This document shows, piece after piece, positions 154-5,666 of a stretch of 64,000 bases of DNA; positions within the stretch are counted from its first letter, which is position 1; the number at the start of each line of letters is the position of its first letter. The notes beneath the pieces are model-generated. The model worked only from the letters and a program-made list of their open reading frames with translations, had not been told where the DNA came from and did not search any database. Source of the DNA: an uncultured Planctomycetaceae bacterium. GTDB taxonomy: Bacteria; Planctomycetota; Planctomycetia; Pirellulales; Lacipirellulaceae. Location of the stretch: assembly GCA_964430075.1 (NCBI GenBank), contig CAYSFP010000008.1, positions 145 through 64,144 of the forward strand. The letters run 5' to 3'. Made by a program: the position numbers and the translations under genes.

Positions 154-230
154 GCTACACCCGCAGCAGTTCCAGCGGCGACTGCCAGAACAGCCGCGGC
201 GCAAATACGGCCGCCAGGTCCCCGGCAAGC
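154..230 (-). repeat. Duplicate of the 3' end of the GNAT gene
   Basis: 154-201 is identical to 1574-1621 (48 bp). The minus strand reads ...DLAAVFAPRLFWQSPLELLRV*, versus ...ALAAVFPPRLFWQSPLELLRV* in the intact gene. An in-frame stop lies upstream, near 333. Confidence 0.9.
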
Positions 231-407
231 CGCCGGGACGAGAGCCCGATCAGCTTGGCCGACTGGTCGGCCGTCCTCTCTCCGCGAACTGCGATGGAGC
301 CCAGAACACTGCTTAGAAATCGGCCTCGCCGTTATGGGTTTTGCACTCTAATTGGAAGGACGCGGTGCGCCATTATTCGCGAGGCATTACCTACGCTTGG
401 CGAGTGT

Positions 408-941
408 CTAGTCCGGACGTGAGATTGCCGCGAGCGCCCCGAAAGCCAGCGCTGCGAACGTCAACGCTCCGAGCACGTCGAGTAGCGTGAATTGTCGGCG
501 CGGTTTCGGCTTCAAAAGGAGCGCCAATGCCGCCGTCACCGCCGTTACGGACCAGTGGGGCGGAGAAATGCGCCACTCACGCGGACGAATCCAATTGTAT
601 CCCAGAAAGCCGACTTCCGAAGTGGGCTGAACACCGATGTACGACATCAAGAATTGCGTGGCTTCTAGATATTGCTCTGCCGGCAACGATCGTATTTGCC
701 ACCCCCGGTAGTGCTGGTTTTTGTGCACAGTTTTCCAACAAATGGCGAGGTGGCCACGCCATGAGGTCACGCCGAGATTTTGATTATCCGGCAGCGGTCC
801 GTTAATCCACTCGCACCGATAGTAGCTGCGCACCCACAAAGCAGATGAGCCGATACACGCGGTGAGGCATGCGAGGAATGCGACATGTCGCATGCCTCGT
901 AGTCCGACGCGAAGCCAGCGGCGCTTGGGGGCGGTCGGCAT
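408..941 (-). CDS. Hypothetical membrane protein with planctomycete-type PKRRW..LR leader
   Basis: 177-aa ORF with hydrophobic segments, LWVRSY and PPHW motifs and a C-terminal RRQFTLLDVL. Confidence 0.7.
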   Translation of the reverse strand: MPTAPKRRWLRVGLRGMRHVAFLACLTACIGSSALWVRSYYRCEWINGPLPDNQNLGVTSWRGHLAICWKTVHKNQHYRGWQIRSLPAEQYLEATQFLMSYIGVQPTSEVGFLGYNWIRPREWRISPPHWSVTAVTAALALLLKPKPRRQFTLLDVLGALTFAALAFGALAAISRPD

Positions 942-965
942 TTTTTGTGTGGCTGTGTCGAAACG

Positions 966-1307
966 TTAGAAGCCGCCTCGGGAAGGCGCTCGGGATACCT
1001 TCGCTTCGGGAAACAAGTCCTTAGCAATTTGCAACTCGGCGTCAGTTGCGCCGGGCAGGTTGATCTCTCTCACCGCTCTGTCGCCCAGAAACTTGCTAAG
1101 CGGCCAAGTTCTCGGGTTCCGTGCTATCGGGACATAGCCGATGCTCGTTCCTCGCGGCGTCTCGCCGACAAACAGCGTGTCGATGTAAGCCTTCCGTTGT
1201 CGCATGACATGGGCACTCCAACCTAACCAAGTCGCCAACCCGGTCATGACCAAAAACAGCCCGCGAAGGCTGAAGTGCAACCAGCGTCGTTTGGGGGCGT
1301 CGGCCAT
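966..1307 (-). CDS. Small hypothetical protein with PKRRWLHFSLRGL leader
   Basis: N-terminus MADAPKRRWLHFSLRGLFLVMTGLATWLGW, a leader plus TM pattern common in planctomycetes. LRR-cap-like C-terminus. Start could be 1316. Confidence 0.7.
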   Translation of the reverse strand: MADAPKRRWLHFSLRGLFLVMTGLATWLGWSAHVMRQRKAYIDTLFVGETPRGTSIGYVPIARNPRTWPLSKFLGDRAVREINLPGATDAELQIAKDLFPEAKVSRAPSRGGF

Positions 1308-1458
1308 ATTTCCCATCAGAGCAGCGAGGCAAACTTCCGAAGCATCGACAGCCGGGGCGTTCGTTGTGTTGAGAAACTGCTACCGGCTAAAAGAGGCCCG
1401 CAATACGGCCATCGCTGCATCCGCTCAAAGTCCACGATCTGCAATGATAGACATTCTG

Positions 1459-1556
1459 CCGCGGACGCCAAACAAGGCCATCCACATTTCCTCGTCATTT
1501 GCATCTTTGCAATTCTCCCCCCTCCGACCTTGGCGCTCTTGGCGACCTTGGCGGTT
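1459..1556. repeat. 9-bp periodic mini-element
   Basis: cttggcgct-cttggcgac-cttggcggt at 1529-1555, with a degenerate inverted arm ccgcggacgccaaacaag at 1459-1476. Confidence 0.55.
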
Positions 1557-1574
1557 CCTCCCCTTCGTGAAATG

Positions 1575-2996
1575 CTACACCCGCAGCAGTTCCAGCGGCG
1601 ACTGCCAGAACAGCCGCGGCGGAAACACGGCGGCGAGCGCTTCGGCGACTCGCTCGGAAGAAACCTGCAGCCGCCCGGCCGTCAGCGCTGCCGGGATCGA
1701 CAAGTTGCTCAACAGCAGCGAGTCCATGATCGGCCGCGCACAGGCGACCCAATCTGCCGGCAGCTCCGCGACCCGCTCCAGCCGCGCGCTGCGGCGCGTG
1801 AGCGTGAACCGGTAGCGATCCTCGCCAAGGTCGAAGCCCAATTCCCATGGCCGCGCGATCCCCGCCGCCCGGGCCCGCTCGTGCCACGCCGGATAGAACC
1901 GTTCGGTCCACTTTTCGGGCGCGAGCAATTTCGCCATCCATCGCGCTCGCCCCGCGCCAGCATCGCTGATCCACTGCCCCCCAGCGGTCACGAGCAGTTC
2001 ATGCAGCGGGTCGCTCGCCGGCGTGAACAGCGAGATCGAGTTGTGATCGCGATCCATCGCGTCCTGGCACGCCCGTGCCAAGAGCTGCGTCTGCGCGGCG
2101 GCGAACTCCTCCAGCGTCGCCATCTCGATGATGCACGAGCCGCGGACCACGGCGTAGCCGACGACCTTGCCGCATGCGTGGACGTCATCAGGCGGCAGAT
2201 CGTTGCCGCCGGCGGCGCGATCCTCCACCGCCAGCAGGATTTGATCCTGCGCCTTGCGCCCAATCAGCCATTGCCACCCCAACTCGGAGCGGAGCAGCGG
2301 CCCCCACTGGTCGACGGCAAACAAATGGTAGAGCGAGCGAACTGCATCAAGCTCGAAATGCCGCCAGGTACGGACGGTCAGCGGCGTCCTTTTAAGCCGC
2401 CGCCGCGCTGCGTCCTGCGCATCGAGGTGCGCGAGCACGGCGCGTGCATTGGCCCGCGTGTGACCCTGGCCGCGCAGCAGGCTCCAGCCCCGCCGGGCGA
2501 AAAACTCGGGCGTCTCGGCATGCACGATGCCGACGACGGCGCCCTCGCCCGCGGCGATGTCCTCGGCAGAGTCGAGCAAGCGTTCGCCATAGCCCGCCGA
2601 GCTGAACTCCGGCAGCGCGGCAAAGTCCTGCAGCTTCACCACCGGCACGCGCTGCCCCTCGAACCACGCGATGTGGTCCGCGACATGCACATGCGCCACC
2701 AGGTCGCGCTCGCGGCGCACCAGCAGCCGATCGCTGGGCCGGTAGCTCGGCTCGTCGAGCCGGCTCTGAAAATCCTCGCCGAGGGCGGCGTGCCGCGTTT
2801 CGACCAGCAGCTTCAAGACCAGGGGATGATCGCCAGCATTGCCGGCAACGATGCGAACGCCGTCGCCCAGCACCTGCACGCAGGCGGCGTCAGCGCAGCC
2901 GTAGACGTGAGCCGACGACGAACCATTCCCCGCGCCAGCATGCTGGCGAGAACGTCCGCCGGTCGGCCCCTGGCTCCATTCCGTAGGGGCGGACAT
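1575..2996 (-). CDS. Eis-like GNAT family N-acetyltransferase
   Basis: GNAT motif A-like segment DFAALPEFSSAGYGERLL, then PEFFARRGW, a second GNAT-like repeat and an SCP2-like C-terminus. Confidence 0.75.
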   Translation of the reverse strand: MSAPTEWSQGPTGGRSRQHAGAGNGSSSAHVYGCADAACVQVLGDGVRIVAGNAGDHPLVLKLLVETRHAALGEDFQSRLDEPSYRPSDRLLVRRERDLVAHVHVADHIAWFEGQRVPVVKLQDFAALPEFSSAGYGERLLDSAEDIAAGEGAVVGIVHAETPEFFARRGWSLLRGQGHTRANARAVLAHLDAQDAARRRLKRTPLTVRTWRHFELDAVRSLYHLFAVDQWGPLLRSELGWQWLIGRKAQDQILLAVEDRAAGGNDLPPDDVHACGKVVGYAVVRGSCIIEMATLEEFAAAQTQLLARACQDAMDRDHNSISLFTPASDPLHELLVTAGGQWISDAGAGRARWMAKLLAPEKWTERFYPAWHERARAAGIARPWELGFDLGEDRYRFTLTRRSARLERVAELPADWVACARPIMDSLLLSNLSIPAALTAGRLQVSSERVAEALAAVFPPRLFWQSPLELLRV

Positions 2997-3166: not shown

Positions 3167-4843
3167 CTATCGCGCGGGAAAGGGGAAATCCAGAAAAAAA
3201 TTCTGAAGAAGCTCGCGCGGAAACAGGCAGGAGGCGTACTCCCGGGAGTCCAGCACGCGGTTGGACCGCAGCCGCGCGGTCGCCGAGGCAAGCTGTCGTT
3301 CCAGCACCGCCCGCTTGCCGGAGACGAACTCCTGCAGCGCCGCGTTGGCGGCGACGATCCCCTGATGCCGCGCCGCCGCAGTTTCCGCCTGTTTCGGCGT
3401 GTTCACCCATTGGCGCTTAACGGCAATGAGCTCGGCAACGTTGCTGGCCTGCCGATCCGCTCCGTTGCCGTCGTCGGTCAAGTCGATTTGTCGCTCAGGA
3501 TGAAACGTGAGCTCGCGCAGTTCCAAACGCAGCCGCCGCACGTCGTCGGCGCTTGCCTGGGGATGATCGATGGGCAGCCGCAATGTTCCCGTGATCGCGG
3601 CAAACCGCGGAGGCGCCGAGCCGAAGAACCGCCGCGCGATTTCGTCGGTCGCTTCGTCGTACTTGGCCCCGCCGATGCCGTGGACAAATACGTCGGCTAG
3701 GGCCAGGCGGATGAACATCGTCGTGATCAGCGCACGGGACCGCAGCTTGACGCCCTCGGCCTCCCAGCCGAGCAGCGCGTCCACGGCATCCGCTCGACGA
3801 GCCGAGGCGGCGACGGGGAGCAGCCGCTCCCAGTTCCGCCGATCGGAGGCCAGCAGCCCGCCTGACGACGGACGAACGAACAGCGGCCGGCGCCGGCGAT
3901 CATCGGATGTCCAAATCCAGAACGGCGCCTCCCGCCACGGACCGTCCGTAGCGAGGTCCGGCACGGGGTGGGCATGATTACGCAGCCGATGCGACTGCCG
4001 GTAGCCGTGCAGCGTGCCGTTGTAAGCCGCCGCAAAACGTGGCAGATCGGTCAAAATGGCCAGTGCGAAGCGGTGAAACGCCGTGGTTCGGCAGAGGCCG
4101 CTTTGCGCGAGCTCAAGATTGCCGCGCCCCCAGGCGGCTTCCGCGCGGGATCGCGCCTGGTCCAGCGCCGTGCCGAGCAATCCCGTCGTAGTGCCGCGCT
4201 CGACAACCGTGGGCCACCACTCGTCCAGAAAACGCTCGGGCGCAAGCTTCCCGCATTCGTCAGCCACGCGCTGGGGAAACGACTTCCAGAGCTGCTCATC
4301 CGCGATGGGACGCTCCTCCCACGGCAGCGCCGACATGGTCGCATCGTAGTCGACGATCGCGAAGTGCGGCGCGTCGACTGTGCCGCTGGGAACCAGGATG
4401 GACGGGCTGCGGCACAGGTCGGCGTCGATCGAAATCTGCAGCCCAACGCCGCCGTGAGCGCGCGCCGCTTCAGCGACGACAAAGTTCTTCAGCCACACGC
4501 CCGGATGAATCAGCCCCGGTTGGTGGCCCGTGACGATCAAGGGCCCCAAGTGGTCGAGTCTCTCCGAGACTCGAAAAGCCGATTCAGGCCGATCGATCTG
4601 CAACGTTGAAGCTGGTGAAGGACGAGTTACGGAATCCGAGTTTCGGAGAGACTCGGCCACTTGCAGCACTTCGGCGCGTGCCTTCGCGGCAAACTCCGGC
4701 AGCGACTCGCCCAGCACGTCGAACTGCACGTGCTCCCGCCACGCGTGGTTCTCGGCCAACAGCGCCGGCAGCCCGCGCCACGAGGGAACGGCGAGCTTTT
4801 GCCCGCTTTCGGCTGGTGCGCGATAGCGGGCGTGCGGCGGCAT
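3167..4843 (-). CDS. Conserved hypothetical, BshC-like HUP-fold putative ligase
   Basis: IVTGHQPGLIHPGVWLKN resembles the BshC VVTGQQ region. FVHGIGGAKYD resembles BshC YIGGPGE and is followed by a coiled coil. Confidence 0.55.
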   Translation of the reverse strand: MPPHARYRAPAESGQKLAVPSWRGLPALLAENHAWREHVQFDVLGESLPEFAAKARAEVLQVAESLRNSDSVTRPSPASTLQIDRPESAFRVSERLDHLGPLIVTGHQPGLIHPGVWLKNFVVAEAARAHGGVGLQISIDADLCRSPSILVPSGTVDAPHFAIVDYDATMSALPWEERPIADEQLWKSFPQRVADECGKLAPERFLDEWWPTVVERGTTTGLLGTALDQARSRAEAAWGRGNLELAQSGLCRTTAFHRFALAILTDLPRFAAAYNGTLHGYRQSHRLRNHAHPVPDLATDGPWREAPFWIWTSDDRRRRPLFVRPSSGGLLASDRRNWERLLPVAASARRADAVDALLGWEAEGVKLRSRALITTMFIRLALADVFVHGIGGAKYDEATDEIARRFFGSAPPRFAAITGTLRLPIDHPQASADDVRRLRLELRELTFHPERQIDLTDDGNGADRQASNVAELIAVKRQWVNTPKQAETAAARHQGIVAANAALQEFVSGKRAVLERQLASATARLRSNRVLDSREYASCLFPRELLQNFFLDFPFPAR

Positions 4844-4868
4844 GTGTCGGGGAGATTCGGCTACGACT

Positions 4869-5666
4869 TTACTGGCAGCAGCAGGGCGTGAACTCGCTGC
4901 ATGGCAGCGCAGCGAAGCTGCTGGCGGTCGCCTGCGAGCGGCAGGCTTGAATCGCCTGTTCGATCACCGAGTGGTAGTAGGCCAACCGCGTTTGCGCGTC
5001 ATCGAGCGACCCGCCAAAGCTGCGCTTTTCGTCGAGATAGATCAGCGGCACCGCCGCCTCCGTGATCCGCAGGCCATGAAACGCTGCCTGCACCCAAAGT
5101 TCCAACGGCATCGCGTAGCCGGGGTCGGTCACGTTGAGGTGCTTCAGGGCCTGCACACGATACGCCTTGAATCCGCAGAACGCGTCCGTCAGGCTCAGCC
5201 CCAGCCGGCAGTTCAGCTCGTCGGTGATCTGCAGATTGATCCGCCGCCGATCGGCCGGCGCGAGACCCACGGGAATATCGACGCCCAAATAGCGGCTGCC
5301 CGACACGATGTCGACGCCGCGACAAGCTTCCACCAATTGCGCGATACGCTGCGGCTCATGCTGCCCGTCGCAGTCAATGGTCACCAGCACGTCGTAGTTG
5401 TGCGCGATCGCGTAGTCGAAGGCCGTCCGCAATGCAGCGCCATAACCCCGGTTCGTCGGATGGGTCACGACGGTGATATCGCTGCGCTGGGCGAGCAGCT
5501 CGCGCGTGCCGTCGGTCGAGCCGTCGTCGACGACGAGGATGTCGCCCGCGTTTCGCACGACCTGATCGAGCACGGTCGTGACGTACCGGGCCTCGTTGAA
5601 CACGGGCAACGCGGTCAGATAACGCACGGCGGCGGGGACGGCTTCCGTGGAGCGGTGTTTCGACAT
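4869..5666 (-). CDS. Glycosyltransferase family 2 (DPM1-like)
   Basis: ALPVFNE, VVDDGSTDGT, NRGYGAAL, TIDCDGQH and VSGSRY motifs. Confidence 0.9.
   Translation of the reverse strand: MSKHRSTEAVPAAVRYLTALPVFNEARYVTTVLDQVVRNAGDILVVDDGSTDGTRELLAQRSDITVVTHPTNRGYGAALRTAFDYAIAHNYDVLVTIDCDGQHEPQRIAQLVEACRGVDIVSGSRYLGVDIPVGLAPADRRRINLQITDELNCRLGLSLTDAFCGFKAYRVQALKHLNVTDPGYAMPLELWVQAAFHGLRITEAAVPLIYLDEKRSFGGSLDDAQTRLAYYHSVIEQAIQACRSQATASSFAALPCSEFTPCCCQ

Follow-up and report, generated by a model that had tools for sequence, protein, structure and literature searches.

In the genome of an uncultured Planctomycetaceae bacterium (family Lacipirellulaceae), the 3′ end of a gene for an Eis-like GNAT acetyltransferase is present twice, and the two copies bracket a pair of small genes that come without any recombinase. 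We read this locus, with modest rather than strong confidence, as an islet that probably entered by a Campbell-type insertion through a gene-tail copy that it carried itself, the reaction being catalyzed in trans or left to host recombination. The locus lies at the start of the window, by which we mean the whole 64,000-nucleotide stretch analyzed here, that is, bases 145–64144 of contig C8 (CAYSFP010000008.1) in a 6.1-Mb metagenome-assembled genome (MAG) of 343 contigs. A first-pass annotation of this DNA had proposed an integrase-less islet inserted into a protein-coding att site. The anatomy of the locus, the foreign character of its cargo, and the recurrence of the same arrangement in other genomes speak for that proposal, whereas no empty site from the same species came to light.

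The duplication consists of 48 nt that are identical at positions 154–201 and 1574–1621, with a spacing of 1420 nt. The window contains no further copy (none at all is expected, as judged from 100 shuffles), and neither does the rest of the 6.1-Mb genome. Read on the minus strand, each copy comprises 44 coding bases, the stop codon (CTA on the plus strand, at 155–157 and 1575–1577), and one base 3′ of the stop, and hence the last 15 codons of the GNAT gene. The perfect 48-bp repeat that the first-pass annotation had placed at the GNAT stop is thus exact, unique in the genome, and reaches one base past the stop, and the upstream decay of similarity reported with it is equally clear: an ungapped alignment of the two tails extends to ~120 nt with 77% identity overall, falling from 47/47 matches in the core to 29/48 and then to 16/28. 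In translation, the distal copy ends in ...LSSRRLAGDLAAVFAPRLFWQSPLELLRV and the GNAT gene in ...VSSERVAEALAAVFPPRLFWQSPLELLRV, each directly before the stop codon, and the frame of the distal tail is shut by a stop 58 codons upstream. The gene at the proximal copy is intact. Its match to Acetyltransf_9 (PF13527) is borderline, at 25.1 bits against a cut-off of 25, and the same assignment is precomputed for many of its orthologues. The latter occur once per genome in all 13 of the 13 same-genus genomes searched, and their C-terminus, PRLFWQSPLE(L/F)(M/L)R(L/V) followed by the stop, is conserved.

Sequence comparison indicates that the distal fragment is an outgroup-type tail joined to a resident-type core. 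Orthologues from the genus share with the GNAT gene 34–41 of the 47 core bases and 24–42 of the 72 bases that precede the core, and the distal fragment matches the resident gene at 47/47 core positions and at 44/72 before them. Over the 48 bases next to the core, the fragment is equidistant from the resident gene and from the gene of a sister lineage (29 and 30 matches, respectively), and it keeps the family-consensus residues LAG...FAP where the resident gene has VAE...FPP. This outgroup position, together with consensus residues that the resident gene lacks, indicates that the distal tail is no recent copy of the resident gene. An outgroup-type tail on a resident-type core is the pattern that would be expected of recombination, or of later gene conversion, inside the core.

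Between the two copies lie two small genes, as had been noticed in the first-pass annotation, namely the open reading frames (ORFs) ORF177 and ORF116 (table 1). Both share the strand of the GNAT gene, and a promoter-like site is found upstream of ORF116, at 1471–1444 on the minus strand. Pfam and PADLOC searches returned no match for either product, and in a comparison with 5.8e9 proteins at E ≤ 1e-5, each matched itself only. Weak relatives of ORF116 (43% or less) occur elsewhere in the genomes of the family, where weak relatives of ORF177 are likewise scattered, and ORF177 has paralogues of ~30–33% identity in its own genome. The interior of the insert has a GC content of 58.3% versus 64.9% for the genome, which corresponds to the 2.8th percentile of equal-sized segments: the cargo is compositionally foreign. 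A Pfam search detected no recombinase domain in the insert, and no fragment or pseudogene of an integrase or of another mobility gene was found within the 1.4 kb. Counterparts of both cargo genes are absent 3′ of GNAT in all the relatives compared.

The same gene tail is duplicated in other members of the family. We searched for the last 44 GNAT residues in all 120 family genomes, 54 of which show the C-terminus of the gene, and second tail copies were found in two of them, G068 and G071, both belonging to Bythopirellula. The insert of G068 consists of a single gene (contig C61, 7221–9266) set between direct repeats of 87 nt, which are 99% identical and run from −63 to +24 with respect to the GNAT stop. 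The 681-aa product of this gene bears a GmrSD_N (DUF262) domain and a weak Swt1-type HEPN C-terminus (RNxxxH motif) and is matched by the PADLOC candidates PDC-M55C and HEC-05. The stop codon of this gene lies 8 nt from the distal repeat, its GC content is 47% versus 57–60% around it, and the native rhomboid, antisigma, and sigma genes come after the distal copy. In G071, contig C134 carries, in this order, sigma, antisigma, rhomboid, a tail copy, a 91-aa gene, a dCTP-deaminase-like gene, and a second tail copy. The duplicated tail spans −61 to +15, and 32 nt of its proximal copy are on the contig, which ends there. The cargo (4032–4894), at 47% GC, is composed of a 91-aa ORF and a dCTP-deaminase-like gene of 196 aa (Pfam DCD, 2.5e-28), the start of which the ORF overlaps by 4 nt, and the stop of the cargo abuts the repeat. 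A PADLOC search gave no match for this pair, which is a candidate nucleotide-depletion defence pair. Empty sites were identified on contig C250 of the same G071 bin (91.5% identical to C134) and in G017, and when the flanks of the G068 insert are joined, they are collinear with both.

Neither Bythopirellula insert contains an integrase, so that the three cargos, from two genera, are unrelated to one another, below their hosts in GC content, and devoid of a recombinase. The duplicated segment differs in length from case to case (48, about 76, and 87 nt) and has different ends, which argues against a transposase with a fixed staggered cut. The GNAT gene tail hence looks, from these genome comparisons, like a recurrent landing site in Lacipirellulaceae for small recombinase-less cassettes. 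A peptide search at the level of the order (401 genomes) returned no further duplicated tails, and a profile-based metagenome scan retrieved 18 loci, the sole duplicated one of which belongs to the same organism as G068 (99.99% identity). Scanning genome contigs with a degenerate pattern of the core produced mostly chance matches, and 0 of the 80 records listed had two matches. One candidate second tail, a “fragment” in G107, was rejected as part of a frameshifted full gene: around positions 3720–4970 of its contig C9, the GNAT orthologue is spread over three reading frames, which may reflect a pseudogene or long-read consensus errors.

A sister lineage provides a closer point of comparison. 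The 90% protein cluster of the GNAT gene has a second member, encoded on a 3.76-kb Logan contig (L167, SRR31724218), which is 90% identical to the resident gene at the protein level and 87.9% at the DNA level and has a tail of the resident type. This contig, assembled at k = 31, crosses the 48-nt core unbroken, where a second copy would have caused a branch, and the sister lineage therefore has a single copy of the core. The duplication is either specific to the present lineage or was lost in the sister. The last 47 nt of the core are identical in the two lineages (47/47), and we rejected this conservation as a signal in itself, since the two genes also share uninterrupted stretches of 54, 47, and 45 nt at other places. 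Attempts to reach the region downstream of the sister gene through the protein clusters of the sigma, antisigma, and small-ORF products led only to contigs of this genome's own sample or to a DNA-less record. Outside its own 90% cluster, the best GNAT homologue among the matches listed (5.8e9 proteins) is 69% identical.

The structure of the insert does not depend on the MAG assembler. A Logan contig of 1450 nt (L166, SRR16798009) equals window positions 1603–154 at 100% identity and overlaps itself by 30 nt at its ends. This match rules out a chimera made by that assembler alone, and the tail-to-core and core-to-cargo joints are confirmed independently of it. Three further contigs of the same run correspond to window positions 5534–1618 (L170) and cover contig C267 (L168 and L169). 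Since 1450 equals 1420 + (k − 1) and the contig breaks exactly at the outer end of the core, L166 represents a repeat-induced loop at k = 31. We accordingly rejected it as evidence of a circle, such a loop being what the 48-nt repeat makes at this k. In the loop contig, the passage from the diverged tail into the core is unbroken. L170 stops at 1618, 4 nt into the core instead of 30, and the k-mers of the gene-to-core joint are missing; low coverage or population/strain heterogeneity could be the cause.

A carried gene tail and a single crossover would be the most economical account of all three loci. In the present case, the unit would measure 1,420 bp and be made of the two small genes plus one gene-tail copy. 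The incoming DNA, presumably circular, would have borne this copy, and a single, Campbell-type crossover between the chromosomal and the carried tail would have occurred inside the 48-nt stretch of identity, thereby leaving the GNAT reading frame complete and a truncated, foreign-type tail at the far border. The enzyme would have come from outside the islet, either as a recombinase acting in trans or, alternatively, as the homologous recombination machinery of the host working through the 48–87 nt of identity available at the three loci. The unit may still be mobile today. A wider interpretation, which we consider doubtful, is that the last ~50 nt of the GNAT gene are the docking site of a system of one- or two-gene cassettes, often anti-phage, each bearing a copy of the tail. 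Their integration, excision, and transfer from one species to another would be the work of RecA alone or of a recombinase whose gene lies elsewhere, and the site would be a functional analogue of an integron platform, without an integrase or attC at the site.

The surroundings of the locus are rich in dispersed repeats, two families of which contribute to its edges (table 1). The 9-bp periodic mini-element described in the first-pass annotation (1525–1553, period 9, 3.2 copies) turned out to be a member of the first family, R1, of which the genome holds at least 64 dispersed copies, with the 9-nt periodic make-up GGAACCGCCAAGG-TCGCCAAGA-GCGCCAAGG-TCGGAGG. Of the 64 R1 copies, 22 lie no more than 60 nt 3′ of the stop of a long same-strand ORF (17 of these 22 at 6–18 nt) versus 8/64 in the opposite orientation, and R1 thus looks like an oriented “gene-end” repeat; it also often occurs as inverted pairs ~100 nt apart. 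The sequence that comes after the proximal stop (CATTTCACGAAGGGGAGG...) is a long-head R1 variant, which on contig C267 also comes after a stretch resembling window positions 254–335. The second family, the GGACA-box repeat (C8:55–300), has about 36 BLAST-detectable copies with 64–72% identity, and the element ends exactly at the distal copy, which it had correctly been said to abut. Its end motif, GGCGGAGGGGAAC, resembles the R1 head (GAAGGGGAGGAAC), and several GGACA loci have, ~110 nt further on, a “tail” homologous to C267:49–137.

Table 1. Features at the GNAT locus, in window coordinates.
Feature	Position	Strand	Basis or remark
GGACA-box dispersed repeat (R2), running on to the contig start	1..153		The boundary of the family falls at the end of the distal core
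Distal 48-nt core, attR-like	154..201		Exact repeat
Diverged part of the displaced, truncated gene tail	202..273	-	Clear protein homology at ~202-253
Inner right end of the insert	254..335		74-80% like C267:103-183; some GGACA units have a similar tail
Cargo ORF177, small membrane-type protein	408..941	-	ORF (177 aa)
Cargo ORF116, small protein with an N-terminal APKRRWLxFSLRG membrane-anchor-like motif	966..1316	-	ORF (116 aa)
R1 repeat straight after the GNAT stop, with three CCTTGGCG-type 9-mers at 1525-1553	1516..1573		At least 64 dispersed copies
Proximal 48-nt core, attL-like (15 codons, stop, 1 nt)	1574..1621		Exact repeat
Target gene, Eis-like GNAT acetyltransferase, 473 aa, intact	1575..2996	-	ORF, Pfam

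On the upstream side, the neighbours of the locus are biosynthetic genes. Beyond the distal copy, the flank is limited to 297 nt, as contig C8 begins 144 nt before the window. The first 54 nt of C8 (GTAGAGTAGGGAGGTGGCGCGGTGGTTTAGGCATTGGCTTGGTCTGTTTCCGG) are the same as the ends of contigs C193 and C232, so that the sequence to the right cannot be traced further. The bin lacks the node to which these three contig ends lead on, and the shared 54 nt are probably the entry into a multicopy element. ARAGORN and Rfam did not recognize this shared end, and Rfam returned only chance-level matches on the first 1.8 kb of the contig. In relatives, the GNAT gene is followed 3′ by a convergent antisigma/ECF-sigma pair, in some of them preceded by a rhomboid gene, as in Bythopirellula and in G009, the closest relative within the genus, in both of which the rhomboid gene lies between GNAT and antisigma. 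In the genome studied here, this pair is on contig C267, which is oriented with its first base towards the start of C8; the 1.4 kb ahead of it (C267:1–1472) contains repeats and one small membrane ORF of the RFSLKWLL type, and no homologue of the rhomboid gene was found in the bin.

Several observations weigh against the insertion of a recombinase-less islet as we propose it. In the sister lineage, the stop codon is followed by an R1 repeat, as at the proximal junction here, within the 40 nt that remain before the contig ends. If these two R1 copies were orthologous, then the left border of the islet would be native and the insertion would not simply be core to core. Orthology is the simpler reading, and an independent placement is plausible, given how often R1 adjoins ORF stops (22/64 copies). 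On the other side, 254–335 is similar both to C267, the native contig downstream, and to GGACA-unit tails, which implies that the edges of the insert are made of the genome's own repeat families; either these edge repeats moved in after the insertion, or rearrangements among repeats helped to shape the locus. Moreover, all 297 nt of the right flank are dispersed repeat, the native continuation of which is read from synteny only. The first-pass annotation had predicted that an empty site would show the GNAT stop directly followed by bases 1–153, and none was found for this species, an exact scan of JGI metagenome contigs with the 48-mer having yielded 0 matches. Among the 54 family genomes in which the C-terminus is present, none was seen to have an integrase-bearing element at the GNAT tail, and neither two scans of viral contigs nor a distant BLAST against plasmids and phages revealed a carrier of the site or of an attP. 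A recombinase acting in trans would have potential sources in the genome, with 16 PF00589 tyrosine-recombinase matches, two of them of Xer-like strength. All of these are on other contigs, and none could be linked to the site. As for the diverged tail, its pN/pS values (0.37/0.55 over 17 codons) draw on too few sites (17–24 diverged codons) to be informative, and a core at 100% identity beside a tail at ~60% requires either pre-existing identity or later gene conversion.

Part of this evidence would fit a history in which there was never any discrete mobile unit, the locus having been produced by local rearrangement in a repeat-rich intergenic region and the small genes being lineage-specific, a scenario that we hold to be possible, if on the unlikely side. 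A second tail would have originated from an old segmental duplication or from a once-longer foreign GNAT gene, would have been shortened by a deletion with one end in a repeat of the R1 or GGACA type, and its last 48 nt would later have been homogenized with the resident gene by gene conversion. Under such a history, the R1 copy shared with the sister lineage and the homology of 254–335 to native sequence and to GGACA-unit tails are readily accommodated, the region being a patchwork of two dispersed repeat families; the paralogues of ORF177 elsewhere in the genome, the many local direct repeats that tandem paralogues create in this genome, and the sharp boundary between 100% and ~60% identity, which resembles that of a conversion tract, point in the same direction. 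However, a duplicated GNAT gene or an additional tail at this locus occurs in no relative other than the two clean insertion cases, and the full second GNAT paralogue that the first-pass annotation had named as the finding to fear was seen in none of them. The same tail around unrelated low-GC cargo in two genomes with precise empty alleles is hard to reconcile with accidental rearrangement. The foreign composition of the interior, an alignment of 120 nt without any indel, and the consensus residues retained by the fragment also speak against it.

Rather improbable, in our view, is that the locus is the decayed remnant of a larger integrase-bearing island or prophage, internal deletions of which would have left attL, attR, and two cargo genes. 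Such decay is a documented route to integrase-less, att-flanked elements (PMC5704250), and the 16 tyrosine-recombinase matches on other contigs indicate that islands of this kind circulate in the genome; yet the 1.4 kb hold no trace of a mobility gene, all three occupied sites are units of one or two genes with almost no spare DNA, and an integrase-bearing element was found at the site in none of the 54 genomes with the gene tail. We give even less credit to an assembly artefact or chimera near a contig end of the MAG, which strikes us as very improbable. The proximity of the distal copy to the contig start (298 nt), the fragmentation of the bin into 343 contigs, and the terminal 54 nt shared by three contigs might raise this suspicion. 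However, the 48-nt repeat is shorter than the apparent k (contig overlaps being 54 nt), so that no collapse would be expected, and the upstream side of the fragment is not a gene, so that two orthologues were not joined. In addition, the independent k = 31 Logan assembly of SRR16798009 reproduces the insert base for base, with 154–1603 exact in L166 and the gene up to the core in L170, and the assembly error against which the first-pass annotation had cautioned is therefore not seen.

It is instructive to compare the recombinase-less islet proposed here with known systems. The element e14 and phage 21 insert into the 3′ end of the protein-coding gene icd and restore it, each carrying its own tyrosine integrase next to attP. 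The present locus shares with them a gene 3′ end in two copies, of which one completes the gene and the other is displaced, and an element-borne tail that differs from the host tail outside the crossover region, whereas no recombinase gene lies between or next to the repeats here. Two other classes of elements are less similar. An integron cassette would be hard to recognize in a core that folds no better than shuffled sequence (z = −1.0, on which basis a hairpin in the core was rejected) and has no recombinase near it. The target-site duplication of a transposon does not agree with the variable repeat lengths, the lack of a transposase, and a repeat search in which no inverted-repeat pair appeared at the borders.

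Among the integrative conjugative elements (ICEs) as well as the integrative mobilizable elements (IMEs) of streptococci, cis-mobilizable elements (CIMEs) are flanked by att sites and lack an integrase; by definition they are ICEs or IMEs that have decayed, and they become mobile when a related ICE inserts next to them (PMC5704250). Like them, the islet has attL/attR direct repeats with the target gene's 3′ end in them (48 nt exact, with weaker homology to ~100–120 nt), contains no gene for integration or transfer (its two ORFs being without Pfam or PADLOC match), and leaves the target gene intact. Unlike them, its units are 1–2 genes long, and nothing points to an origin by decay of an ICE or IME, there being no remnants in the insert and no ICE or IME at the site in the 54 genomes. 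The 13-kb H47 island of Escherichia coli has neither integrase nor excisionase and is bordered by extensive imperfect direct repeats, recombines within identity segments of these repeats by functions of the host background, and has been shown experimentally to excise and integrate independently of homologous recombination (Azpiroz et al. 2011, PMC3191183). Being small, integrase-less, flanked by imperfect direct repeats, and, as we propose, formed by crossover within an identity segment, the islet is akin to H47, from which it differs by its size (1.4 kb), its Planctomycete host, its repeats derived from the tail of a protein gene, and in being known from sequence alone. Tycheposons, which use tyrosine recombinases and form islands at tRNA genes in Prochlorococcus (bioRxiv 10.1101/2020.12.28.424599), likewise hold cargo between partial copies of a target gene, reuse one site, and include degenerate integrase-less units in their islands, whereas here a protein gene is the target, and the analysis turned up no parent element with a recombinase.

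What appears to be new is therefore the combination of very small size, recurrence, and absence of a recombinase in putative gene-tail cassettes at a protein-gene att site of Planctomycetes, a phylum for which, to our knowledge, only a small number of mobile elements is on record. Were the units immobile, the locus would simply be a rearranged, repeat-rich intergenic region. The three occupied sites and the matching empty ones offer concrete attL, attR, and attB substrates with which the recombinase could be looked for. If the units do move, Planctomycetes would be able to acquire individual accessory or defence genes, and to shed them again, at one fixed chromosomal address, without those genes having to bring along a mobility gene of their own.

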